Source: an uncultured Thermoplasmatales archaeon
GTDB taxonomy: Archaea; Thermoplasmatota; E2; UBA202; DSCA01
Length of the DNA: 64,000 nucleotides
Direction: 5' to 3'
NCBI GenBank assembly: GCA_964514975.1
Contig: CAZESS010000008.1
Coordinates: forward strand, 1-64,000
Numbering within the stretch: position 1 is the stretch's first letter; every line of letters starts with the position of its first letter. The translations under genes and the position numbers were made by a program. Positions 1 through 47,796 of this stretch are shown piece after piece. The notes below the pieces were generated by a model. It was given only the letters and a program-made list of their open reading frames with translations. It searched no databases and had not been told where the DNA came from.

Positions 1-2673
1 CGATGGCACATCGAGCACCATGATGGTGTCGGGTGAGAGATATTTCGCCCAGCAGGTGATGTGCTCCGTGGACTGGTCGTAGGCATCTGACATGACATGG
101 GGCGTGATGACGCCCAGGTAGTCGATGAGGGTCTGGTTGATATCCTCGTGGGTCATCCCGGGATTGTCGGTCCAGAGGAGCTCGGTGAAGGCGGCGCCCC
201 CGTACCCGTTGGTAATGAAGTTACCGCCGGTGTAGTCCAGGGGCATCGACACCATCGGGAGGCCTGCATCGGCTGCGTAGGCACCCGGTATGGCGTCGTC
301 GTTGTCATCCGATGGCTGGTTGTAGGTGAAGTTGACAGCCTGCATGGTATAATTTGTGCGGTCGGTGTTGTTGAACCGGAACAACGGCCCATAGTCGCGC
401 GTGTGGTAGCTGTCAGAGGGAGCGATGAGATAGCTGGTATGGGCGGTGTTCACGCCGTTGCTGGCATACATCGCCTCAACGGTTGACTGCTGGCTGCTGC
501 TGTCGACGATGGTGACGACTTCAACGTTTTCGGCGAGCTCGGCGACGACATCGTAGGTGAGCGGAAGGCTGTCGTCGGCGCCGTAGTTGATGAGAACTTT
601 TTCCATCGGGTCGAACGCAGCGGGGACACGCAGCGGCGGTGTAACCTCGAGCACGGCGATATAAGGGGTGTAGTTGTGCGCGACGACGATCAGGGTGAGA
701 TTGCCGATGGACTGCGGCGCAAGGGTGAAAGATGCCTCGCCGGCCGCATCGGTTTCAGTGCTCGCGTACACGTCTCCCTGTTTCAGCGCAGTGACCGTCG
801 CGTTTTCGACGGGGTCCCCGTTCTGGTCTTCGACGATGACGTCCAACGGAGCGTTACCAACCGAAATGCTCGGGGGATGGGACACCGAGAGCGGTGCTGG
901 AACCTCGGTCCAGATGGTGAGCTCGGGGTCGGTGAACGAGTTGAACATCTGGTATTCTTTCTGGGTGGTCGAATCGCTGCTGCCGTATTCGTTGTACATG
1001 TACAGCTTCCCCCGGTTCATGATGCCTACGAACTCGTAGATGCTGTCGTTGAACATTGCCTTAAAGAACCCCTGCGCGAGCTCGTCGTTGTACCCGGTAT
1101 AGGAGGGGCGGGAGGAGCCAAGAAAGGCGGCGGCCCCGCCATTCGCTTTTTTCATCCATACCTCCCCGAAGCAGTCCTGGCTGCTGTCGTCGAACCACCC
1201 CGTGTTGCAGGTGGTGCTGAACACCACGGGCAGCTTCTGCCCGTTGACGAGGTCGTAGACGTCGGAGTTGTAAAAGCCTCCGGAGCCGGCCATGTACCAG
1301 CCGTCAACGGAGCCGTGCTCACGGTAGTTCATGAAGGCGACGCCGGCGTTTATTTCGCTGACCATCCTGGCGGTGCCACCCTGGTTTTCGTTCCATTTGC
1401 TCACGTCGTAGCCATACGGGGTCGTGATGTTGTCGATGACGTTGGCGGTCCATTCCCACTGCCAGCGGTCGGTGCCCCAGAAAACCGTGATGTTTTTGTA
1501 CCAGCTCGTTTCGCCGAGATAGGGATTTTTCTCGTACTGTATCCACTTGTTGACCGCGATGGTTGCCTCGGAGCTGTTTTTGACCGAGAGGCGCCCGATC
1601 AGGAGGTCGGGAAGATAGTCACTTCCAGCCATGGTGCTGTATGGCAGATCGGTCGCGCAGCTGCCCTGTCCGCTGTGGGTGGGTAGATACTCAACGTCTC
1701 CAACGAGCAACACGTAGCTCGGGGATATCTGCCAGTTGTTGTATGCATGGGAAATGAAATTCGTAATCGCGGTTTCACCGGTACCGGAAAACTCGCTGTA
1801 CACCCGGCTGAGGTTGACGATACGTGCATCCAGGCCCTTCTGCCATTTCCATTCCAGCAGCGGCAGCATGCTCCCGTAAAAGGTATCATTTGTTATCACC
1901 AGATAGTCCACGGTGTTCGTGGAATCCATAAGGTCCGCGATGCCGTGGGACGGCAGCTCATCGCCACCGGATGAGCGAAGCGGGGACGTATACCAGGTCT
2001 CCAGCGCGTCCCTGTTGGAGACGGCGGCCCGCACCTGTCCGACGAGATGCCGCGATATCTGCCGGGTGGCATCCATGTCGCCGGCAAACTGTATCTCCAC
2101 GGTCATGTCGGTATATACCTCAAGGGTGTGCTGCCCGGGGTTCGTCCGGAACATGTACATGGATACCTGCAGCACCCGTGCTCCATAGAGGGTGACCGGG
2201 TCGTCCACCTCCACCGGCACGTCGGGATACCACCTGTCGCTGGCATACAGGCTCTCATTGAGCGAAAACGGGGGGTCATCGCTGGCGTCCTCCGTCGTCG
2301 GCTGCTGGAACGGATACACCCTGTAGCCGTCACGGGTATAGCTCGACGAGGAGAGAACCTGGACGGAGTCAACCGATGCGCCGGGCGGCATGGCGACCAG
2401 ACAGCGCTTGACAGGCAGCCGTGGTTTGCCGACCTCGCTGGTGACGCCGTAGTCCGGCACGTCAAGCTGCTGGTAGATGGTGTCGTTTACCGTGACGTTG
2501 TTGACGGCGTAATCGGTTAGATGCGCTTCGAGGACAACGGTGTCATCGCCCGTGGACGTGGCCAGCGGGGATGCCTCTGACTGTGCGCTTGCGGGGACAA
2601 CAACGACGGAGGTTCCCATCAGAAAAGCAATCACTGCAAATACAGCTATTTTTTTATATATGGTGGCATACAT
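1..2673 (-). CDS. Secreted C25 (gingipain-family) cysteine peptidase fused to an agmatine/peptidyl-arginine-deiminase-like domain; 3' end runs off the window
   Basis: Not in the ORF track. Manual translation from ATG 2673 (MYATIYKKIAVFAVIAFLMG, signal peptide) reads open to base 1. It has a propeptide (GKPRLP), a C25 core (YVLLVGD, PDLLIGRL, NYREHG, FSTTC, FTDP), an Ig-like linker, then deiminase-type motifs RVPAAFDP, HTRDYGP, GGN and HITCWAKYL. Confidence 0.88.
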   Translation of the reverse strand, partial: MYATIYKKIAVFAVIAFLMGTSVVVVPASAQSEASPLATSTGDDTVVLEAHLTDYAVNNVTVNDTIYQQLDVPDYGVTSEVGKPRLPVKRCLVAMPPGASVDSVQVLSSSSYTRDGYRVYPFQQPTTEDASDDPPFSLNESLYASDRWYPDVPVEVDDPVTLYGARVLQVSMYMFRTNPGQHTLEVYTDMTVEIQFAGDMDATRQISRHLVGQVRAAVSNRDALETWYTSPLRSSGGDELPSHGIADLMDSTNTVDYLVITNDTFYGSMLPLLEWKWQKGLDARIVNLSRVYSEFSGTGETAITNFISHAYNNWQISPSYVLLVGDVEYLPTHSGQGSCATDLPYSTMAGSDYLPDLLIGRLSVKNSSEATIAVNKWIQYEKNPYLGETSWYKNITVFWGTDRWQWEWTANVIDNITTPYGYDVSKWNENQGGTARMVSEINAGVAFMNYREHGSVDGWYMAGSGGFYNSDVYDLVNGQKLPVVFSTTCNTGWFDDSSQDCFGEVWMKKANGGAAAFLGSSRPSYTGYNDELAQGFFKAMFNDSIYEFVGIMNRGKLYMYNEYGSSDSTTQKEYQMFNSFTDPELTIWTEVPAPLSVSHPPSISVGNAPLDVIVEDQNGDPVENATVTALKQGDVYASTETDAAGEASFTLAPQSIGNLTLIVVAHNYTPYIAVLEVTPPLRVPAAFDPMEKVLINYGADDSLPLTYDVVAELAENVEVVTIVDSSSQQSTVEAMYASNGVNTAHTSYLIAPSDSYHTRDYGPLFRFNNTDRTNYTMQAVNFTYNQPSDDNDDAIPGAYAADAGLPMVSMPLDYTGGNFITNGYGGAAFTELLWTDNPGMTHEDINQTLIDYLGVITPHVMSDAYDQSTEHITCWAKYLSPDTIMVLDVPS

Positions 2674-2845: not shown

Positions 2846-4477
2846 TTACAGCCCGAGTACCAGTGGGCCGAGGACGAAGCCGCTTGCGGACTGGCTTGCG
2901 CCGCCGGCGGATACCTCTATCGTCGTCGGTCCGATGCCCAGTACGAAGCCGGTGCTGATGTCCGTTGACGCGCCTGGTTCGAGGCTGTCGATGGTGCCGG
3001 TTACCTCGGAGTTGAGGAACACCGCTCCGCTGAGCGAGATGGTCCAGTCTATGTTGCTTCCTGCTTCGAGCCCGACATTGGACACGGTTGCCGTGATACC
3101 CATGCCGCCGGATATGCCCTCGATGGACATCTGCGGTCCGGGGAACTGCGACCAGTATATGTCCTTGTTTCCGTTGCGGTTGTCCGTCCAGACGATGCCG
3201 CCGGGATGGATGTCGCAGGTGTTTTCTTCCTCGACAACGGTGCCGTCCTCGTCGTTTATCTGGGTTGGTTCGTCCCAGGTGGCGCCGCCGTCGCCGGATT
3301 CGATGTAGTAGAGGTTGCCGTCGCTGACGTAGGCGCAGCGGACGGTGGACCCGCTCATAAATGCCGCGGGGTACATCTCGTCGCCGTCGCCGTCGGTCAC
3401 CCGGGTGGTTTCCCAGGTATCGCCGGCATCCGAGGTGTAGGCGCATTTGATGTCCCAGTTGCCGTTCTCGTTGGTCTGGTAGACCACGGCCGCGTTGCTG
3501 CCGGATGACCCGATGTTCGGATGCGCCGCATCGTAGTCAGCGCTTTCATCGAGATACATCTGGTAGGGCGTGTACTCGATGTCGGGTTCCTCCTCGGGGA
3601 CGATCTTTTTGTAGACGATTTGGCTGTTGCCGGTGTCCTGATTGTCGTACTGCCAGGTGAGATGGACGTAGTCCTCCATGGTCTGCGCCGGGTCGCTGTC
3701 ATGATGGCAGGACATGTCGGGGTCCGCCGCGGGCGCCGTCACGAGCTCGGACTGCGCGTCGAAGTAGCCGACGCCGCCGGCCTCCATTGCTCCGCCGACA
3801 TACCAGTGGGTTGGGCAATAGGGAATGTCGTAGCCGCTGCCGGGGTTGTAGACATACTGGTTGGTGGGGCCGGTGATATCGTAATTGGCCTCGTTGTACC
3901 AGGTGTTATCCGCGATGGACGCATAGGTGACATCGGTGTACTCGGTCTGCCAGCTGTATATCTCGTAGGTGTCGGTGTTGGTGATGTCCGTCATGCGGTA
4001 GAAGCCGAGCATGCCCTGGCTGATGTCGATGTAGACGCCCCAGAGTCCGTCGAAGTCGCCGCCGCCCTCGAAGTTGGAGCCCTGCACCCAGGCAACGTCG
4101 TTGTATCGCTGGACGCCCTCCATCTGTACCATCTGCGCGGTCCAGCTTTCGCCGCCGTTCTGTGAATACGACCAGCCGATGTTGGATTCCATCGCCGCTG
4201 CCGCGTTGGTGAACGCCACGACAAGGTTGCCACTGAGGTCCTCAGTTATCGCCGGGAGCATGTCGTCGTTCGGGCTTTCCGGGGTGACCAGAACGTTGCC
4301 CTGCATGCCCGCAGCCATGGTGGTCTGTCCCATCGGGTTAACCGAGAACGACCGTCGTTCCGCGTTTTCATATGGAACCTCGTCCGTTGTTTCCTCTGAG
4401 CCGTGTATCATCGGTAGCGCCGCTGTTATCATCAGTGCAGCTATCGCCACACTTAAAACAATTTTTTTTGCTTGCAT
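2846..4477 (-). CDS. Secreted BNR/Asp-box (sialidase-like propeller) protein with a C-terminal beta-rich domain
   Basis: GGAGG RBS before MQAKKIVL signal peptide; Asp-boxes SQNGGESW, TSDAGDTW, SGDGGATW. Confidence 0.8.
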   Translation of the reverse strand: MQAKKIVLSVAIAALMITAALPMIHGSEETTDEVPYENAERRSFSVNPMGQTTMAAGMQGNVLVTPESPNDDMLPAITEDLSGNLVVAFTNAAAAMESNIGWSYSQNGGESWTAQMVQMEGVQRYNDVAWVQGSNFEGGGDFDGLWGVYIDISQGMLGFYRMTDITNTDTYEIYSWQTEYTDVTYASIADNTWYNEANYDITGPTNQYVYNPGSGYDIPYCPTHWYVGGAMEAGGVGYFDAQSELVTAPAADPDMSCHHDSDPAQTMEDYVHLTWQYDNQDTGNSQIVYKKIVPEEEPDIEYTPYQMYLDESADYDAAHPNIGSSGSNAAVVYQTNENGNWDIKCAYTSDAGDTWETTRVTDGDGDEMYPAAFMSGSTVRCAYVSDGNLYYIESGDGGATWDEPTQINDEDGTVVEEENTCDIHPGGIVWTDNRNGNKDIYWSQFPGPQMSIEGISGGMGITATVSNVGLEAGSNIDWTISLSGAVFLNSEVTGTIDSLEPGASTDISTGFVLGIGPTTIEVSAGGASQSASGFVLGPLVLGL

Positions 4478-4621
4478 GGTTTCTTGCCTCCACATATACA
4501 TGTCCGAACCTTTTAAATATTTATCGCTCCCAGGTCGGGCAAAAACACGGGGCGTGGACCGAAAAGATGGCCGCGATGCTAACGAAGCATCTGCATCGTT
4601 GAACGAAGTGCAGGATTGCTC

Positions 4622-6532
4622 TTACTCGTAGCCGCCAATTTTCAGGCTGGGGTCGCCCAGGAGCACCCATTCCTGGATGGTCTTCAGGTCTATCTGGCCG
4701 TCCATGGGCGGATAGACGCCGGCATAATCGGCGATGGCTTGGCCCCAGGTCTCGCCGAGGACGTCGACGCCCTCCAAGGCATAGAGCTCAAAGAAATGCG
4801 TCTCCAGCCATCCGAGGTACACCTGGAGGCAGTCGGGAACGCCGTCCTGGTTGCTGTCGCCGGTGGCACCGTAGCCGAGGCCGGTGCAGCCCATGGTAGC
4901 GATGGCGCCGCCACCCCGGAGCTTGACCGGCCACCAGCCGAAGCACTCGGGAACGGGCATCCAGTACCAGGTGGGGTTCCCCATGAGCGACTGGATGCAG
5001 CCCCTGGCGCTTCCGAGGAAGGTGGCGTTGAACATGCTGTTATGGCAGCCGCCGATGACCCAGATGCCATACTGGCCGTCGTTCTGGAGCAGCTGCATGT
5101 GGTAGACCTCGAGCCCGAGGATGTACTCGCCGTGGGGGTCGTCGGTGAAGTCCTTGCCCATCCACATGCCCGGGCTGCCGTGACCGGAGAAATGTACGAA
5201 GCCGGAGCCCTGGCTGATGGCGTCGACGACCTTTGACTGCTCTAGGTTGCCCTCCGACCACCAGAGCTTCGTCGCGTCGAATCCCTCGAGAATGCTCGCC
5301 GTCTTTGCGGTCGCGAGCTCTCCCTCGAGATAGTTGTGGCCCTGCCGGTCGTTGAAGGTATCCCCGCCGACGAGCGTCACGCTCCTGAACCATGGAGAGC
5401 CGGCCGCCGTTGTCTCATAGCTGATGATCTTGTCGACCACGGTTTCCATCTCCCGGGTGTTGCGACAGGCGAGCCGGCCGACATAGACATCGGGGTACCC
5501 GTCGATGGTGTCCTTGCCCGTCCAGCCCCATTCGCCGTAGACATGGTTGTCGTTGGTGTCCCATGAGGAAAAACCGCCCTCGGCGTCGTAGATGTCCGCG
5601 TAGTAAAGGTCGCTGATGTAGGTGGGCTCGGAGCCGTCGTTGTTGTGGATGTAGCGCACCGGCACGTGCCAGTCCTGTCCCGCTATCAGCGACTGGAGGC
5701 CGCCGGCCAGCAGCACGTATTTGACGCCCCAGTTTTCGATGGCGTCCCTGATGTAATATTTGACCTGTTCCGCGTGGTCATATCCCTGCGCCGAGGCGTA
5801 AATGTCCGTGGTGGTAACGAGCTTGGTCGCCAGGCCGTGGTCTTCCTTGTGCTGGACGAGCGGCTGCAGCGCCCCGGTGAACTCATCGGGAGCGATGATG
5901 AGCAGGTCATGTTCGTCGGCGGTAAACAGCGGCTCAGCCGGCGCTTTATAGGTCACCGTGACCTCGAAGGTGTCCGCCTGCTCCAGCGTGCCGGCGCCAG
6001 GTGTATACCGTGCCGGGAAGAGCTGCATCGACAGGATGGTGGCATGCGCTCCCTCGTGCAGGCCGGCGCCGGTGTGCCAGCGGACCCATTCCGCGGGATA
6101 TGTCTCCGGACTTTGACCGACGGTTTTTCTGGCTGCCTCGACGGGCCCATTGCTGTGCAGCGGCACGGCCGGGACAGCACGGGCAACGTCGTGCTCCAGC
6201 CGGCGCGTCTCGATATCGCCCACGGTGGCGGTCACGTCAAGGATGCGTGTGCCCGCCGGGAAGGTTATGGTCCTCGTTTCGTAGGGAAGGATGGGGCATC
6301 CCGCTTCATGGGTATACCGTGCGCCTTTGAGCGTGACCGTGGCGGCCCCATCAGCGGTGGCAACCCGCGGTATGGCAACCCGGTAGGTCTGCATCATGGC
6401 GGACGCCTCGGCGGCATCGGCGTCGGTGGCGGCGGTAAATGTTCCGATGTCTGCGACGGGGCCGGCAAGGGTGGCGAATGCACTTACGATGAACAGTGCT
6501 CCCACGAGCAAAACGGTTATTTGTTGTTTCAT
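4622..6532 (-). CDS. Secreted C25 gingipain-family cysteine peptidase
   Basis: Signal peptide, propeptide, SDLYYAD, PDVYVGRL, HFSGHG (His), IGGC (Cys), LLGDP. Confidence 0.9.
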   Translation of the reverse strand: MKQQITVLLVGALFIVSAFATLAGPVADIGTFTAATDADAAEASAMMQTYRVAIPRVATADGAATVTLKGARYTHEAGCPILPYETRTITFPAGTRILDVTATVGDIETRRLEHDVARAVPAVPLHSNGPVEAARKTVGQSPETYPAEWVRWHTGAGLHEGAHATILSMQLFPARYTPGAGTLEQADTFEVTVTYKAPAEPLFTADEHDLLIIAPDEFTGALQPLVQHKEDHGLATKLVTTTDIYASAQGYDHAEQVKYYIRDAIENWGVKYVLLAGGLQSLIAGQDWHVPVRYIHNNDGSEPTYISDLYYADIYDAEGGFSSWDTNDNHVYGEWGWTGKDTIDGYPDVYVGRLACRNTREMETVVDKIISYETTAAGSPWFRSVTLVGGDTFNDRQGHNYLEGELATAKTASILEGFDATKLWWSEGNLEQSKVVDAISQGSGFVHFSGHGSPGMWMGKDFTDDPHGEYILGLEVYHMQLLQNDGQYGIWVIGGCHNSMFNATFLGSARGCIQSLMGNPTWYWMPVPECFGWWPVKLRGGGAIATMGCTGLGYGATGDSNQDGVPDCLQVYLGWLETHFFELYALEGVDVLGETWGQAIADYAGVYPPMDGQIDLKTIQEWVLLGDPSLKIGGYE

Positions 6533-6590
6533 GTCAACCAACCGTTACATGGTGGTAATAATTTATAATCTTTATGCCGGTCCGTGGACA

Positions 6591-7667: not shown

Positions 7668-7740
7668 ATTATGGTACATATATCCGGCGGGCTTTAAAAC
7701 GATGGCGCCATGTTTTTTAAGCCCTGGCAGGATACCCCGT

Positions 7741-8787
7741 ATGAACGGCCTGGCCATCTGTGCAGTGCTGTTCCTGCTGCTGTCCGCCATTGCTGCGCCA
7801 GATGCGCCGTGGGAGTCCGAGCCTGCACCGCTGTCCGATGACCCCTATTTTGTGCCGGTGGACATGTCGCTGGCGGACGACGGGTTCCACGATGGATGGC
7901 CGGTGCATGCCGAAACCTGGTATTTTGAGGCACTGTTCGAGGGCGGAAGCAACATGAGCATGGTGTTCCTGGTGTCGCTGCTGTCGCTGCCCGATGGCCG
8001 AACAGGGATGGCCATGGTCGGCCTGCACCTCTACCAGGATGGACGGCTGGTTGCGATGGAGCGGGTGATGACAACGTCGTATACGGCGGCGTCCGACCGT
8101 CCCCGGATAACGCTGCAGGACGAAACGGTCATCGAGGGAACGGTGAACGAGGCGGGCAACCTATGCTACCGAATCGACTTCCAGCGTAATGATAGCGGCG
8201 TCGCCCTGCAGTTCGTCAACCAGACGCGGGGATGGATGGGCGACCTGGGGCGGGGATGGTGGCTGGCGGTGCCGGAGCTTGGGGTGACGGGCACGGTGAC
8301 GGTGGACGGCGCCATGGCTGCGGTGACAGGTGCTGGCTACCATGACCACAACGTGTTTTCGCTGCTGAGCCCGCTGCTTGAGCAGGGTTATCTCGACGGC
8401 AAGATGACCGCCGAGCATTTTTCGCTGGTCTGGGGATACATCATGGAAAGCCGGACGCGAGCGCACGGCTTCGCCGTCGTGAGCAAACATGGCGACTATC
8501 TCGCCCTTGGCCCCGGCGAGGTGGACATCTCGTTTTCGTCATATGTCTGGGACAACGGAAGCCGGATCCCGACCGTCTGCACCATCGCCATCCATGACCC
8601 TGCCACTGGCCTCGCCGGACGGATATGGATGAACGCGACGGCGGTGCACCACATCCGGCTACCCCTGCTCCGGTACTGGCGCTACCACGTCGAGGTGGAC
8701 GGATGGCTCAGCAGCCCGTCACATCATGCGGCAATCGACGAGCGGGGCATCATGGAATACATGCGCTACCTGGAAAAAACAGCATAG
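7741..8787 (+). CDS. Secreted AttH/CrtC-like (lipocalin-like hydratase/cyclase fold) protein
   Basis: Signal peptide; ETWYFEA and GAGYHDHN motifs. Confidence 0.6.
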   Translation: MNGLAICAVLFLLLSAIAAPDAPWESEPAPLSDDPYFVPVDMSLADDGFHDGWPVHAETWYFEALFEGGSNMSMVFLVSLLSLPDGRTGMAMVGLHLYQDGRLVAMERVMTTSYTAASDRPRITLQDETVIEGTVNEAGNLCYRIDFQRNDSGVALQFVNQTRGWMGDLGRGWWLAVPELGVTGTVTVDGAMAAVTGAGYHDHNVFSLLSPLLEQGYLDGKMTAEHFSLVWGYIMESRTRAHGFAVVSKHGDYLALGPGEVDISFSSYVWDNGSRIPTVCTIAIHDPATGLAGRIWMNATAVHHIRLPLLRYWRYHVEVDGWLSSPSHHAAIDERGIMEYMRYLEKTA

Positions 8788-8818
8788 TCTTTATACCCGG
8801 GGCAACATTACCACGTGG

Positions 8819-9721
8819 ATGGGATTCGACACAAAAACCTGCGTTATACCGACGGGCACCCGGTTCGACGGCGGCGCCATCAGGCTTGACGGCGACGCGG
8901 TCATCGGCAACAACTGCGTGGTGGAACACGCGATTGAGGCAGAGCGCTGCTTCGTCGGCGAGCGCACCGCCACCGGGCCGCTCTGCGCCGCGGGTGACGT
9001 CCGCATCGACCATTTTTCCAGGGTCAACGGCGACGTGCTCTGCGGCGGCGACGCCTACATCGGTGAGGGCTGCACCATCGACGGGATGCTCCGGCTGCGG
9101 GGCGACCTCGACGTCGGCGACAACGTCAAGATACGGGATGGCTTCGAGGCGCAGGGCTGGATACACATCCGGAATCCGTTGCCCATGGTCATCTATGTCC
9201 TCCTCTACCTGTTCGAGCTCATGAAGCGCGGGCACAGCGAGGAGGTCGAGCGCATCCTCCAGGAATATGAAAAAGAGAGCGCTGTCATCTCGATAGCGGA
9301 GCAGTACCTGTTCCTGCCGCATGGCTCCAGCCTGGGGGGCAGCAGCCAGATCGCCGGCGGGCTGCATATCCATGAGGGGTGCCATGTCGTCGGCACAATG
9401 ACAGCAACCGGTGACATCGTCGTAGCCGAGGACAGCGTCATCGCCGGCTCGCTCCATGCCGACGGTGACATCCACGTCTGTGACGGCGTCCGGGTCGAGG
9501 GTGGCCTCACCGGCCGCACCGTCATGGTCGGTGAGGCCTCGATTGCAGGGAGCATCGACGCAGCAGCGGTGCACCTCTCGCCCGGGGCATCGGTCAATGG
9601 AAAAATAACGGCGCCCGACGGCGTCGTGTTCACCGACGGCACCCGGAAAAAAATGGATGAAACAGTCGAGCGGTTCAGGGAGCAGGTGGACGTCGTCGAC
9701 GGGGTCGCCGAGATGTTATAG
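8819..9721 (+). CDS. Polymer-forming/bactofilin-like beta-helix protein (COG4801-like)
   Basis: Repeated G-D-[VI] beta-helix turns in two halves separated by a hydrophobic helix; GWIHIRNP. Confidence 0.7.
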   Translation: MGFDTKTCVIPTGTRFDGGAIRLDGDAVIGNNCVVEHAIEAERCFVGERTATGPLCAAGDVRIDHFSRVNGDVLCGGDAYIGEGCTIDGMLRLRGDLDVGDNVKIRDGFEAQGWIHIRNPLPMVIYVLLYLFELMKRGHSEEVERILQEYEKESAVISIAEQYLFLPHGSSLGGSSQIAGGLHIHEGCHVVGTMTATGDIVVAEDSVIAGSLHADGDIHVCDGVRVEGGLTGRTVMVGEASIAGSIDAAAVHLSPGASVNGKITAPDGVVFTDGTRKKMDETVERFREQVDVVDGVAEML

Positions 9722-11462: not shown

Positions 11463-11678
11463 ATGTATCACTTCCTTACAATTAGTACACCATGCAAGTG
11501 CTCCTACAGTACACGGGGGTAAAGGAGGAAAGATATGAACATGATGCACTAATTTCCGTGTTATTATGCAACCATCATATTAAAACCTTCCGGCGCCGTT
11601 CGCCCGGAAGCGGGCTGCGGCACCCGATATGAGTAAACGCTAAATAACGTTCTTCTTTTATCCGTCCGTTGAGCTACC

Positions 11679-13826
11679 ATGAGCGACAGGAAGACAGACG
11701 GCGAGCGCATATTCATCGGCGTGGCATGGCCCTATGCCAACGGGCCGCTCCACCTGGGCACCGTGGTCGGCTGCCTGCTGCCGGCTGACATTTTCGGCCG
11801 CTATCATCGGATGCAGGGCAACCAGGTGCTGATGGTGTCGGGCAGCGACGAGCATGGCACCCCGATAACGCTGAAGGCCGAGAAGGAGGGCGTCACCCCG
11901 AAGGACATCGCCGACCGCTACAACAGGCAGCACGTGGACAACATCGACGCGCTGGGCATCGAGCTGGAGAATTTTTCGCGGACGAGCAACAGCTTCCATC
12001 GGCAGGTGGTGCAGGACTTTTTCCTCCGGCTCCACGAAAACGGGTACATCTACCCCGAGACGATGGAGTCGCCGTTTTGCGAGAGCTGCGGGCGCTTTTT
12101 GCCCGACCGCTACGTCGAGGGAACCTGTCCCTACTGCGGAGGAACGGCCCGGGGCGACCAGTGCGAGGACTGCGGCAAGACGCTCGAGGCCGGCGAGGTC
12201 GATGACCCGCGCTGCAAGCTCTGCGGCGAAATGCCGGTGATGCGTGAAACCGAGCACCTGTTTTTCGAGCTGTCCGCCTTCGAGGATGAGCTGCTTGCAT
12301 GGCTTGAAGACAAGGATTTCTGGCGGGGCAACGTCATCACGTTCACCCGCAACTGGATCCAGGAGGGGCTGGAGGACCGGGCGGTGACCCGTGACCTGGA
12401 ATGGGGCGTCCCCGTACCCCTGGAGGGCTACGAGGACAAGCGGCTCTACGTGTGGTTCGAGGCCGTAATGGGCTACCTGTCGGCCAGCAGGGAATGGGCC
12501 GAACAGCAGGATACGCCCGGGGCATGGCGGGACTGGTGGCAGAGCGACGCCCGGCACTACTATTTCCTGGCGAAGGACAACATTCCCTTCCATACGATCA
12601 TCTGGCCGGCGATGCTGCTGGCCCATGGCGACCTCCGCCTGCCGTATGACGTGCCCGCCAACGAGTACCTGACGTTTTCCGGGGAACAGTTCTCCAAGTC
12701 CAAGGGCATCGGCGTCTGGATTCCCGACGTGCTGGAGCGCTTCGCGCCCGACGCCATCCGCTACTATCTGTCCATCAACATGCCGGAGAAGCATGACACC
12801 GACTGGAACTGGCGGGATTTCGAGGCGAAGACCAACAACGAACTGGTCGGCACCCTTGGCAACTTCGTCCACCGCGTGCTCACCTTCACCGCCAAGCATT
12901 ACGGCAAGATACCCGAGATGGGCGGTCTCACCGGTGACGATGAGGCGATGCTCGAGGCAATCGAAAAGCGGGGCGAGGCGATCAGCGAGGCCATCGAGAC
13001 GGTCAGGCTCAAGCAGGGGATGAAGGAGCTCATCGCGCTGGCGCAACAGGGAAACCGGTATCTCAACGAGCAGGAGCCATGGAACCTGGTCAAGCAGCGG
13101 CGGGAGCGGTGCGGCACGGTGCTTCACGTCGCCCTGCGGCTGGTCAGGGCTCTGGCCATCTATATGACGCCGTATCTGCCGCATGCAGGGCAGTGCATCT
13201 GGAGCATGCTCGGGCAGCCCGGACAGGTGAAGGAGCAGCGCTGGAAAGCAGCGCTCGACAGCCTTGCCGATGCAGCCCTGGAGACGCCGACCCCGCTGTT
13301 TGACACCATCGACATTGACGACCTCGTCGCTGATGGCGGCGGGGATGCAACGGAGGGCTGCGAACAGCTTGATTTGCGCATAGCGGAGATCACGCGGGTG
13401 CGGGAGCATCCCGACGCCGACCGGCTCTACGTGTTCGACCTGGACATCGGCGAGCTCGAGGGACGCCGTATCGTAGCGGGCATCAGGCCATGGTACGATG
13501 CCGGGGAGCTCGAGGGACGCCGTATCGTTGTCGTCGTCAACCTGAAGCCGGCGGTCATCCGTGGCGTCCGGTCGCAGGGCATGCTGCTCGCCGCCGACGA
13601 CGGGTCGCCGTCGCTGCTCGTCCCGCATGGCGCGCCAGGAAGCGTGGTAACGCCAGCGGGCGTGGAGGCGGCACCGGCCGACGAGGTCGACATCGATCTG
13701 CTGAAGGAGCTCTCGCTGGAGGTAAACGAGGATGGCAATGCGGTCTGCGGGGGATGTGAGCTGCGGGATGAAAACGGCGTGGTCAGGCCGGACCGGGACG
13801 TGGCCGCGGGGACACCCATTCATTGA
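11679..13826 (+). CDS. metG: Methionyl-tRNA synthetase with C-terminal tRNA-binding domain
   Basis: WPYANGPLHLG, SGSDEHG, four CxxC Zn knuckles, YVWFEA, FSKS, SQGMLL. Confidence 0.97.
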   Translation: MSDRKTDGERIFIGVAWPYANGPLHLGTVVGCLLPADIFGRYHRMQGNQVLMVSGSDEHGTPITLKAEKEGVTPKDIADRYNRQHVDNIDALGIELENFSRTSNSFHRQVVQDFFLRLHENGYIYPETMESPFCESCGRFLPDRYVEGTCPYCGGTARGDQCEDCGKTLEAGEVDDPRCKLCGEMPVMRETEHLFFELSAFEDELLAWLEDKDFWRGNVITFTRNWIQEGLEDRAVTRDLEWGVPVPLEGYEDKRLYVWFEAVMGYLSASREWAEQQDTPGAWRDWWQSDARHYYFLAKDNIPFHTIIWPAMLLAHGDLRLPYDVPANEYLTFSGEQFSKSKGIGVWIPDVLERFAPDAIRYYLSINMPEKHDTDWNWRDFEAKTNNELVGTLGNFVHRVLTFTAKHYGKIPEMGGLTGDDEAMLEAIEKRGEAISEAIETVRLKQGMKELIALAQQGNRYLNEQEPWNLVKQRRERCGTVLHVALRLVRALAIYMTPYLPHAGQCIWSMLGQPGQVKEQRWKAALDSLADAALETPTPLFDTIDIDDLVADGGGDATEGCEQLDLRIAEITRVREHPDADRLYVFDLDIGELEGRRIVAGIRPWYDAGELEGRRIVVVVNLKPAVIRGVRSQGMLLAADDGSPSLLVPHGAPGSVVTPAGVEAAPADEVDIDLLKELSLEVNEDGNAVCGGCELRDENGVVRPDRDVAAGTPIH

Positions 13827-13853
13827 AGAAAACGCCGGCGCCAGCATGATAAA

Positions 13854-13866
13854 TTTTATATATAAA
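13854..13866 (+). promoter_or_regulatory. TATA box of the RHH-PAS gene
   Basis: TTTTATATATAAA about 26 nt upstream of ATG 13892. Confidence 0.65.
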
Positions 13867-13891
13867 CCTCCATTATGTGTGCGTAAATAGC

Positions 13892-14833
13892 ATGTCGAAG
13901 TACAGCACCATTTCTGTTCCAAAAGAACTCCACGACGAGCTGCGGGAAAACGTGAAACACAACCCCCGTCTCGGCTACTCGAGCATCGCCGAGTTCTGCA
14001 AGGAAGCCATCCGGCTCCACGTCGCCAACATCAGGAACGAGCGACGCGAGGCGTTTCTGCAGCGCGTCGACATAGAGGGACTGCTCAGAAAGGTGGACAT
14101 CGTGTCAACCGTCGAAGGCGGCCAGTACCGACGCATATTTGAAACATGCACCGACCCCGCCTTCATCATCGCGGCTGACGGCAGCATCCTCAACTGCAAC
14201 CGGCAGCTCATCGACCAGCTCGGCTACAACGAAAAAGAGGACCTGCTCGGCAGAGACGTCTCCATGCTGTTCGCCGAGCAGGGGCAACTCAACGACGTGA
14301 TGACGGATGCACAAAACAACATGGTACGCGACCGGGACGTGAAACTGAAACGCCGCGACGGCAAAGCACTCGACTTTCTGCTCAGCGTCGGCACCATCAC
14401 CGACAACGAGGACACCACCCGCTACGTCGGCACCGGCAAGGACATCACCGTGCGGAAGATAGCGGAAGACCGGCTCAAAAAAGAACACACGCTCTTCTCC
14501 ACCATCCTCAACGAGGTATACGACTCCATCCTCATCTTCCAGAACGACCGGGTTCAGTATGCTGCAGGCAAATGCCACATCTCCGGCTACACCCCCGAGG
14601 AGCTCGAGGGCATGGACCTGATGGACATCGTAGCCCCCGAAAGCATCGAAAAAGTCAAAGAAAACAAGCAGAAACGGCTGGAAGGCGAGGACATATCCCC
14701 CATCCAGCGCTACACCGTGCTCACCAGAGACGGAGAAAAACGAAGAATAGAGGCGTCATCAGAGGCCATCACCTACGAGGGGCAGCCCGCCATCCTGACG
14801 GTCGTGCGCGCCGCCGACAACGACGGCAGTTAA
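13892..14833 (+). CDS. Ribbon-helix-helix transcription regulator with two PAS domains
   Basis: N-terminal TISVPKEL...GYSSIAEFCKEAIR (RHH); PAS signatures DGSILNCN...LGY...LLGR...DITVRK and SGYTPEELEG. Confidence 0.8.
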   Translation: MSKYSTISVPKELHDELRENVKHNPRLGYSSIAEFCKEAIRLHVANIRNERREAFLQRVDIEGLLRKVDIVSTVEGGQYRRIFETCTDPAFIIAADGSILNCNRQLIDQLGYNEKEDLLGRDVSMLFAEQGQLNDVMTDAQNNMVRDRDVKLKRRDGKALDFLLSVGTITDNEDTTRYVGTGKDITVRKIAEDRLKKEHTLFSTILNEVYDSILIFQNDRVQYAAGKCHISGYTPEELEGMDLMDIVAPESIEKVKENKQKRLEGEDISPIQRYTVLTRDGEKRRIEASSEAITYEGQPAILTVVRAADNDGS

Positions 14834-47722: not shown

Positions 47723-47796
47723 TGCCCGGAGCGGGATTTGAACCCGAGTCCAAGCCTCCGCAGGGCTTTAGGATATCCAAGCTACCCCATCCGGGC
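47723..47796 (-). tRNA. tRNA-Arg(GCG), CCA not encoded
   Basis: Acceptor stem GCCCGGA/TCCGGGC; anticodon arm AAGCC-CTGCGGA-GGCTT; TTCAAAT T-loop; followed by a T8 run. Confidence 0.93.

Follow-up and report, generated by a model that had tools for sequence, protein, structure and literature searches.

A C25 protease joined to a probable pseudo-deiminase of the PPAD type in an uncultured Thermoplasmatales archaeon

The first 2673 nucleotides of a 64,000-nucleotide stretch of DNA from an uncultured Thermoplasmatales archaeon (assembly GCA_964514975.1, contig CAZESS010000008.1, here contig C8, positions 1 to 64,000; this whole stretch is called the window) encode on the minus strand a C25 (gingipain-family) protease joined in one chain to a deiminase module related to PPAD of Porphyromonas gingivalis. 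The explanation that accounts best for the data, and which is considered probable, is that the gene product is a large secreted multi-domain C25 cysteine protease with an intact His-Cys dyad, carrying a recently grafted and fast-evolving pseudo-deiminase. The PPAD module was copied recently, within the genus, from a second gene of the same genome, located on contig C15 and encoding an RgpB-like protease fused to PPAD. The copy became attached to another C25 protease where the immunoglobulin (Ig)-like linker of the latter ends, and it has since evolved about four times faster than its source, losing the deiminase active site. The most likely reason for keeping the PPAD fold is a structural or ligand-binding role, not citrullination. 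The sequence data show the domain architecture, the homologies, the replaced residues, where the module came from and its acceleration; that activity was lost, and that any binding role exists, is inferred from them.

The frame opens at ATG 2673, with the upstream GTG 2682 as an alternative start, and since base 1 of the window is base 1 of contig C8, the gene is interrupted by the contig end and has no stop codon. The genome (G000) was assembled into 66 contigs with a total length of 1.96 Mb and is 98.9% complete. An earlier reading of the letters alone (the original prediction) had proposed this minus-strand frame running off the edge of the window, and the 891-residue translation open to base 1 agrees with it. 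The following features were assigned to the gene:

Positions 1-2673, minus strand: open reading frame of 891 codons without stops, 3' end open at the contig edge.
Positions 2581-2673, minus strand: putative signal peptide, residues 1-31, with a KK motif, a hydrophobic core and ASA/Q, read by eye from the translation.
Positions 2032-2517, minus strand: C25 propeptide (PF08126), residues 53-214; Pfam 66.3 bits, cut-off 22.
Positions 916-1905, minus strand: Peptidase_C25 catalytic domain (PF01364), residues 257-586; Pfam 253.8 bits, E 4e-75, cut-off 23.
Positions 1315-1317, minus strand: catalytic histidine of the C25 dyad, His453, which aligns with His211 of RgpB (1cvr).
Positions 1207-1209, minus strand: catalytic cysteine of the C25 dyad, Cys489, which aligns with Cys244 of RgpB (1cvr).
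Positions 640-900, minus strand: Ig-like linker, residues 592-678; PF13620 36.4 bits, PF03785 16.7 bits (below its cut-off).
Positions 1-639, minus strand: first 213 residues (679-891) of a deiminase domain of the PPAD type, its active site degenerate; two thirds of the catalytic domain lie in the window.
Positions 403-405, minus strand: His757 at PPAD Trp127 (pocket wall), a position occupied by Trp in 179 of 183 aligned rows.
Positions 394-396, minus strand: Asp760, equivalent to PPAD Asp130, retained.
Positions 307-318, minus strand: Gln786 at Arg152 and Ser788/Asp789 at Arg154, the carboxylate clamp being lost.
Positions 55-72, minus strand: Ser868 (at Tyr233), Thr869 (at Ile234), His871 (at His236, kept) and Thr873 (at Asp238, lost).
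Positions 1-55, no strand assigned: 55-base word that also opens contig C15 and closes contig C64, the assembly-graph node of the contig break.

Judged by sequence matches, the deiminase module is of the PPAD type and is not an agmatine deiminase. Residues 706-886 matched PAD_porph (PF04371) with 49.7 bits against a cut-off of 25, over profile positions 35-207 of 321, and residues 659-891 matched P. gingivalis PPAD (PDB 4ytg) with E 7.2e-40, the next deiminase-family chain, 1xkn, following at E 1.6e-6. For the PPAD half encoded on C15 the corresponding values were E 2.7e-51 and E 4.1e-8. The translation of contig C64, onto which the frame extends as described below, matched 4ytg with E 3.4e-48 and PF04371 with 36.3 bits; C64 residues 1-228 correspond to chain positions 196-421, so the Ig-like fold packed after the catalytic domain of PPAD is also found there. 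The identity of the module as the agmatine deiminase AguA, with which it shares the Pfam family and the pentein fold, was rejected on the basis of 14.2 bits against 381.8 for TIGR03380 and 14.5 bits against 483 for PRK13551, and the agmatine deiminases in PDB gave E 0.13-0.48 with the window part and E 0.0021-0.4 with the C15 part. The prediction had assigned the module to an agmatine deiminase/PPAD family, of which the kinship with PPAD was upheld (E 7.2e-40) and that with agmatine deiminases was not (about 14 bits). Its central proposal, that one secreted protein of an archaeon unites a C25 protease with a pentein deiminase domain, proved correct, as PF01364 and PF04371 were both matched in HMMER above the gathering cut-offs and the PPAD match concurred. 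The four motifs that it had singled out, RVPAAFDP, HTRDYGP, TGGNF and HITCWAKYL, were all located from about nucleotide 630 downward. PPAD (PDB 4ytg, 4yt9 and 5ak7; PF04371) is the nearest solved relative of the deiminase part, with both the catalytic and the Ig-like fold covered and with Asp130, His236 and, on C64, Asn297 retained. It differs in being a separate bacterial protein secreted via type IX secretion (T9SS), whereas the module described here is a domain inside an archaeal C25 protease. No T9SS C-terminal domain was seen in the window protein, the C-terminus of which is absent from the assembly.

The active-site residues were mapped with HMMER alignments (chain index + 43 = PPAD numbering) and with a MAFFT alignment of 181 homologues and three fragments of this genome (184 rows). 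As stated in PMC4893104, the catalytic residues of PPAD are Asp130, His236, Asp238, Asn297 and Cys351, with the C351A variant being inactive; Arg152 and Arg154 bind the free C-terminal carboxylate of the substrate, and R152A lowers the activity; the pocket is walled by Trp127 and Ile234, with Tyr233 at its entrance. Of the eight active-site residues that the window encodes, six have changed (W127H, R152Q, R154S/D, Y233S, I234T and D238T), and only D130 and H236 are kept. The replaced columns are 97-100% conserved among about 180 homologues. In the 184-row alignment the catalytic columns read D130 in 183/183, H236 in 182/182, D238 in 179/182, N297 in 175/175 and C351 in 174/176 rows, and the binding columns R152 in 177/181, R154 in 177/182 and W127 in 179/183. 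The window row (H D Q D S T H T) is the sole one with His at 127 and the sole one with Thr at 238; the C64 row is likewise alone in having N350 and alone in having R351. Among the five catalytic residues, Asp238 is thus replaced by Thr873 in the window itself and Cys351 by Arg on the C64 path, at a site in a two-variant bubble and thus only putatively linked to the window gene, and the Arg152/Arg154 clamp is absent from the window copy. The motif HITCWAKYL, which had been equated with the HID of the family, is present, but it contains no intact HID because PPAD Asp238 is replaced by Thr873 (nucleotides 55-57). With the deiminase active site lost, the window protein is interpreted as a protease with a pseudo-deiminase.

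The two PPAD-bearing genes of the genome are unequally related along their length. Before the junction, the proteins encoded on C8 and C15 share 33.5% identity; in the PPAD part the figure is 70.4%. The DNA similarity begins at about nucleotides 695-700, at the end of the Ig-like linker, a position which is likely a recombination boundary. The N-terminal part of the C15 protein is 49-53% identical to those of the fused proteins P0007, P0015, P0021, L006 and L007 and 67.6% identical to that of a gene from the same genus (L096 of genome G004), whereas the N-terminal part of the window protein is only 27-31% identical to the same six. Its nearest relatives carry no PPAD; these are P0183 (44%) and an 859-residue gene product from a genome of the same order (50%). 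In a maximum-likelihood tree of 40 PPAD N-halves, the topology (G004 same-genus orthologue,(C15, window)) was obtained with supports of 100/99 and 99/86. The window branch (0.42) is 4.4 times longer than that of C15 (0.096). Compared pairwise, the window and C15 modules have a ratio of nonsynonymous to synonymous divergence (dN/dS) of 0.33, and the three-point branch dN is 0.16 for the window and 0.03 for C15, about a five-fold difference. The jump in identity, the relatives of the N-terminal part and the tree together led to the reading that a C15-type gene supplied the module once the lineage had parted from its congener, and that the copy was then attached to a C25 protease of another kind.

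The protease part was assigned largely as had been predicted: the propeptide and the C25 catalytic domain were matched above the Pfam cut-offs, the Ig-like linker was recognized by CarboxypepD_reg (PF13620, 36.4 bits, residues 613-678), and the coordinates given in advance for the catalytic His and Cys were exact for His453 and Cys489. The putative signal peptide, MYATIYKKIAVFAVIAFLMGTSVVVVPASA followed by Q, is plausible as judged by eye. Against solved gingipains, the C25 domain gave E 3.3e-24 with RgpB (1cvr) and about 1e-21 with Kgp. The window protein resembles RgpB in having a propeptide, a caspase-like His-Cys catalytic domain and an Ig-like domain in the same order; however, its C25 domain is distant and divergent in type, sharing about 30-33% identity with fused proteins of the C15 type. 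In RgpB, Asp163, Gln282 and Trp284 bind the P1 arginine, according to PMC4357240; a passage of the same paper prints the RgpB histidine as 221, yet names Gly210 and Gly212 as its loop neighbours. The window domain has Ser and Thr in place of Gln282 and Trp284 and, in an uncertain alignment, Glu in place of Asp163, so Arg specificity is not inferable for it. The T9SS sortase PorU was considered as an identity for this domain and ruled out (NF033707, 119.9 bits against a cut-off of 420; PDB 6za2, only E 2.4e-7).

The presumed source of the module is the following gene:

Contig C15, positions 1-2706: paralogue (locus L002) encoding an RgpB-like C25 protease and a PPAD half, also cut by the contig end.

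Its C25 domain matched RgpB (1cvr) with E 5.6e-73 and Kgp with E 8.8e-19 and keeps Asp163, Gln282 and Trp284 as well as His211 and Cys244. All eight scored active-site residues are kept in the PPAD half on its own contig, and its orthologue from the same genus (on L096), which encodes the complete catalytic region, keeps the motif TDALHC. Only three PF04371 matches were found in genome G000, those in the window gene, C15 and C64. By these residues, the C15 paralogue and its orthologues are most likely real single-chain enzymes that cut after Arg and deiminate the new C-terminus. The separate RgpB and PPAD of P. gingivalis are described as cooperating (statements in PMC4893104 and PMC9559808). 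That pair belongs to the same two families, in an order fitting cleavage followed by deimination of a C-terminal Arg. It consists of two proteins, whereas in the fusions, found in archaeal metagenome-assembled genomes (MAGs) and some bacteria, both enzymes are parts of a single chain; and it has both activities, whereas the second is predicted to be lost in the window copy. A single-chain 'cut-then-deiminate' enzyme had been proposed for the window gene; the architecture and the kinship with PPAD speak for the idea, but this copy has lost Asp238, Arg152/154, Trp127, Tyr233 and Ile234 and lacks the S1 residues of RgpB.

Beyond base 1 the frame could be followed on another contig. C8 begins with the same 55 bases as C15, and these bases also end C64, a repeat contig of 1070 bp; shared 55-mers of this kind are the type of overlap left by the assembler at repeats. 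The minus strand of C64 extends the window frame by 356 codons, open at both ends, and encodes the remaining PPAD catalytic domain, the PPAD Ig-like fold and a BACON/Ig-like domain. At its other end (nucleotides 1-55), C64 shares its 55 bases with the end of contig C47. This contig carries a third C25 gene, without PPAD, which has an 867-residue open frame with C25, CARDB-like and BACON-like parts and shares with the PPAD-bearing genes only the start of a common C-terminal module. Shared 3' modules were also seen to break the assembly at C25 genes. Full-length relatives comprise 1260-2195 residues, with BACON-like, InhA-like MAM and sometimes dockerin domains after PPAD. The catalytic GxxHC Cys had been anticipated to the left of base 1; the frame does continue on C64, but on that path the expected motif TDALHCR reads TDGLNRR. 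His350-Cys351 are replaced by Asn-Arg (AAC CGC), each codon being one base away from CAT TGC of the same-genus orthologue, and Asn297 is retained.

The copy number of C64 was evaluated with Logan contigs (not reads) of four runs, aligned to it at 80% likeness. In the run that covered it best (X1), a microbial mat metagenome which may be the source sample of the assembly, the flanks and the middle of C64 had a depth of 22-30, and two bubbles were detected, each with two alternatives, at nucleotides 348-485 (depths 11.4 and 13.8) and 602-876 (depths 12.3 and 13.6). As the flanks stand at about twice the depth of each alternative, C64 is taken as a collapsed two-copy stretch. In the second bubble the middle 148 bases of the alternative were too divergent to be aligned at 80%, and the Asn-Arg codons (nucleotides 734-739) lie within them. 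Runs X3 and X4, with small shares, gave contigs 96-97% alike across the Asn-Arg path, which were not counted as evidence. The Cys-less variant was assigned to the window gene by parsimony, the N-terminal half of its module being already dismantled; the six replacements in the window are independent of this assignment.

Several observations weigh against a grafted pseudo-deiminase, or limit it. The window gene could continue into the other C64 variant, which may keep His-Cys, and the Asn-Arg variant could then belong to C15. A protein search with the C64 translation gave 477 matches at E <= 1e-40, none above 59% identity, and the other Cys351 variant was not recovered among them. No further contig of the bin extends C64, and the C-terminus of the protein is absent from the bin. 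Three of the catalytic residues, Asp130, His236 and Asn297, are still in place and dN/dS stays under 1, so the chemistry could have been altered instead of abolished. The branch omegas (about 0.5 for the window and about 0.1 for C15) are rough, as dS to the outgroup is saturated. The junction rests on one assembly, with no close orthologue of the window type found in others: the best match to region 685-891 among proteins of 490-1560 residues was 56% identical, the best match to the N-terminal part among longer proteins was 44% identical and without a PAD domain, and the best one in the genomes of 14 relatives was 50% identical and without PPAD.

Three other explanations were weighed with these points in mind. 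It is quite unlikely that the window gene itself encodes an active bifunctional cut-then-deiminate enzyme, perhaps with an altered substrate preference. In favour of this, the protein has the fused family's architecture, Asp130, His236 and, on C64, Asn297 remain, the second sequence variant around Cys351 could be its own, and dN/dS lies below 1. However, the six replacements are all encoded by the window contig itself and have few or no counterparts in about 180 homologues, Asp238 belongs to the catalytic five and PPAD is less active as R152A (as stated in PMC4893104), and the C25 domain is without the Gln282 and Trp284 of RgpB, with a doubtful alignment at Asp163. An unlikely reading, too, is that the PPAD-like module is a functionless remnant decaying after duplication, with no binding or structural role. 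The branch 4.4 times that of the paralogue, the roughly five-fold branch dN and the loss of formerly most conserved residues would suit it, but no stop or frameshift occurs over 891 + 356 codons, and the pairwise dN/dS of 0.33 is well under 1. Moreover, relative to C15, 6 of 8 active-site positions differ against 63 of 213 in the module overall (hypergeometric P = 0.009), which looks like remodelling and not like uniform drift, and an independent Cys-less fused copy has been kept at full length in two records 94.5% alike (P0039 and L008, described below).

The possibility that the C25/PPAD junction (nucleotides ~640-900) is an assembly chimera of two paralogous genes is regarded as very improbable. 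The genome does contain 28 Peptidase_C25 matches, it is precisely in these genes that shared words interrupt the assembly, and no other assembly shows this junction. Nevertheless, no contig of the bin shares a word of at least 21 bases with C8:500-1200, the sole words common to C8 and C15 lie at nucleotides 1-55 and 257-499, and the depths along C64 correspond to two PPAD-bearing copies, matching contigs C8 and C15. The domain order and the junction motif (..PYI..L.V.PP.R.PA.F.P..) also recur in independent fused proteins. A protease with a grafted pseudo-deiminase therefore remains the probable reading of the window gene.

The fusion belongs to a wider family. An initial search with the window region returned both domains in 3 of 34 matches, and the C25 domain was also present in 14 of the 181 collected PPAD homologues. 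A phmmer scan of 1.84 billion cluster representatives (50% identity clusters) with the C15 PPAD half as the query gave 2093 matches at E <= 1e-3 and 269 at E <= 1e-30. In species-representative genomes, at least 590 stretches encode a PPAD relative (590 of 594 candidates). The closest named records among the matches listed were MAGs of Thermoplasmatales, Thermoplasmatota and Euryarchaeota; next came Bacteroidales, Cloacimonadota and others, and the named PPAD-type proteins are mostly annotated as 'agmatine deiminase family protein'. Of the best 80 loci, four encode fusions, three of them in archaeal MAGs (L006, L007 and L008) and one in an uncultured bacterium (L077). Within the phylum of the window's organism, a PPAD-type match (E <= 1e-30) was found in 24 of 401 sampled genomes, its own included, all of them in three families. 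The survey of the architecture across the MAGs of the phylum, which had been suggested with the prediction, showed that the fusion recurs, long fused frames being found in three of these 401 genomes besides that of the window.

The fused proteins occupy at least two places on the tree, parted by well-supported branches, and it follows that the fusion arose or moved more than once. P0007, P0015, P0021, P0036, P0038, P0045, L006, L007 and L096 of G004 have the same domain order and junction as the window protein, the PPAD module of which is nested among them as the sister of C15. In the C25 part they belong to the C15/RgpB-like type, with 49-68% identity to C15 and only 27-31% to the window protein, and the full catalytic set is kept. 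In the bacterial or unassigned proteins L077, P0079, P0080, P0090 and P0128, the C25 domain is N-terminal and PPAD lies far downstream (~residue 800-1550), and the PPAD parts group with stand-alone PPAD homologues of Bacteroidales.

A parallel to the window copy was found in P0039 (1739 residues) and L008, two C25-PPAD fusions 94.5% alike with the changes C351Y, R152Q and R154M. Besides C64, they are the only rows without Cys351 (184 aligned rows; 76 scored of the best 80 loci), and all of these are fused to C25. L008 and the intact fusion L007 lie on two contigs of one named Thermoplasmatales MAG. The pair is like the window copy in the loss of Arg152/Arg154, in the fusion to C25 and in the presence of an intact fusion in the same MAG. 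It differs in forming a separate lineage, with the PPAD part 50% and the C25 part 29% identical to the window protein, and in keeping Trp127, Tyr233 and Asp238.

Two genes lie upstream of the window gene on the same strand:

Positions 2846-4501, minus strand: neighbouring gene for a secreted-looking protein of 551 residues; PF13088 29.5 bits, under the cut-off of 31.4.
Positions 4622-6541, minus strand: second C25 peptidase gene in tandem, 639 residues; PF01364 188.1 bits.

The protein encoded at 2846-4501 has a signal-peptide-like N-terminus, SxDxGxTW-like repeats and a sub-threshold BNR_2 match, and its gene sits between the two C25 genes. The Peptidase_C25 matches of the 1.96-Mb genome, 28 in all (e.g., C7:64311-65516, C7:52083-53261 and C8:4640-5902), make up a very large family of paralogues and include several at contig ends. 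Elsewhere in the window, the frames at 7702-8784 (plus strand, 361 residues) and 11661-13922 (minus strand, 754 residues) had no Pfam match at E <= 0.001, the latter overlapping a 715-residue open reading frame on the opposite strand. Bactofilin and hexapeptide-repeat matches were observed at 8726-9718 (plus strand), and a tRNA at 47723-47796 (minus strand) was the only Rfam match in the window at the gathering threshold.

The archaeal nature of the host, as predicted, was supported by matches to Archaea_SRP RNA (188.7 bits) and aEF-2 (1098.6 bits); 16S rRNA was not found in the genome. Carbamate kinase (arcC) and ornithine carbamoyltransferase were above the cut-off (C24:964-1881 and C5:75273-76154), and the profile searches of the genome revealed no match for arginine deiminase or argG, only 18 bits for carB and a sub-cut-off match for argH. 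With arcC and ornithine carbamoyltransferase present and arginine deiminase not matched, a peptide-level route to citrulline is conceivable. It stays speculation, because the distribution of carbamate kinase, nearly universal in the phylum, does not follow that of PPAD: the kinase was found in 263 of 401 genomes (51 of 54 in family f4), and PPAD in 24 of 401. The idea of citrulline catabolism, having no comparative support, was not retained.

In the literature searched, supplements not covered, no description of C25-PPAD fusions or of archaeal PPAD homologues was found, and the fusion family is regarded as undescribed there, though not proven unpublished. Archaeal C25 genes in Thermoprofundales have been published, with the word 'deiminase' absent from the main text (PMC6461988), and both Pfam numbers co-occur in a Porphyromonas phylogenomics study. 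Published abstracts present PPAD as a citrullinating enzyme unique to P. gingivalis. The homologues described here indicate that PPAD is not confined to that species, as domains about 50% identical to it are widespread. An RgpB-like protease and PPAD in one chain constitute a Rosetta-stone fusion, which supports coupled Arg cleavage and C-terminal deimination as a general and not a pathogen-specific trait.

A more far-reaching picture can be offered only tentatively, and as a whole it is doubtful. In it, the RgpB-like/PPAD fusions would represent an old environmental cut-then-citrullinate machine, used by archaea and bacteria that degrade protein, of which the P. gingivalis virulence pair is one split form; the remodelled pocket of the dead copy would have ceased to convert substrate and would bind peptide C-termini (Arg or citrulline), bringing a second protease to the fragments, and the live enzyme would be the entry to a peptide-level arginine-deiminase pathway. 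If this were true, genomes such as G000 would keep a live fusion beside a dead one, with a second protease of different specificity acting on what the first has cut.

Of more interest than the window copy alone are the two paired genes and the family of fusions at large. The window gene would represent a next evolutionary step, in which the module was shuffled to another protease and the deiminase turned into a pseudoenzyme, with a parallel in another MAG. Natural inactive and active PPAD variants of this kind may be of use to enzymology, and the family has a possible bearing on protein degradation and ammonia release by archaea of sediments and mats.

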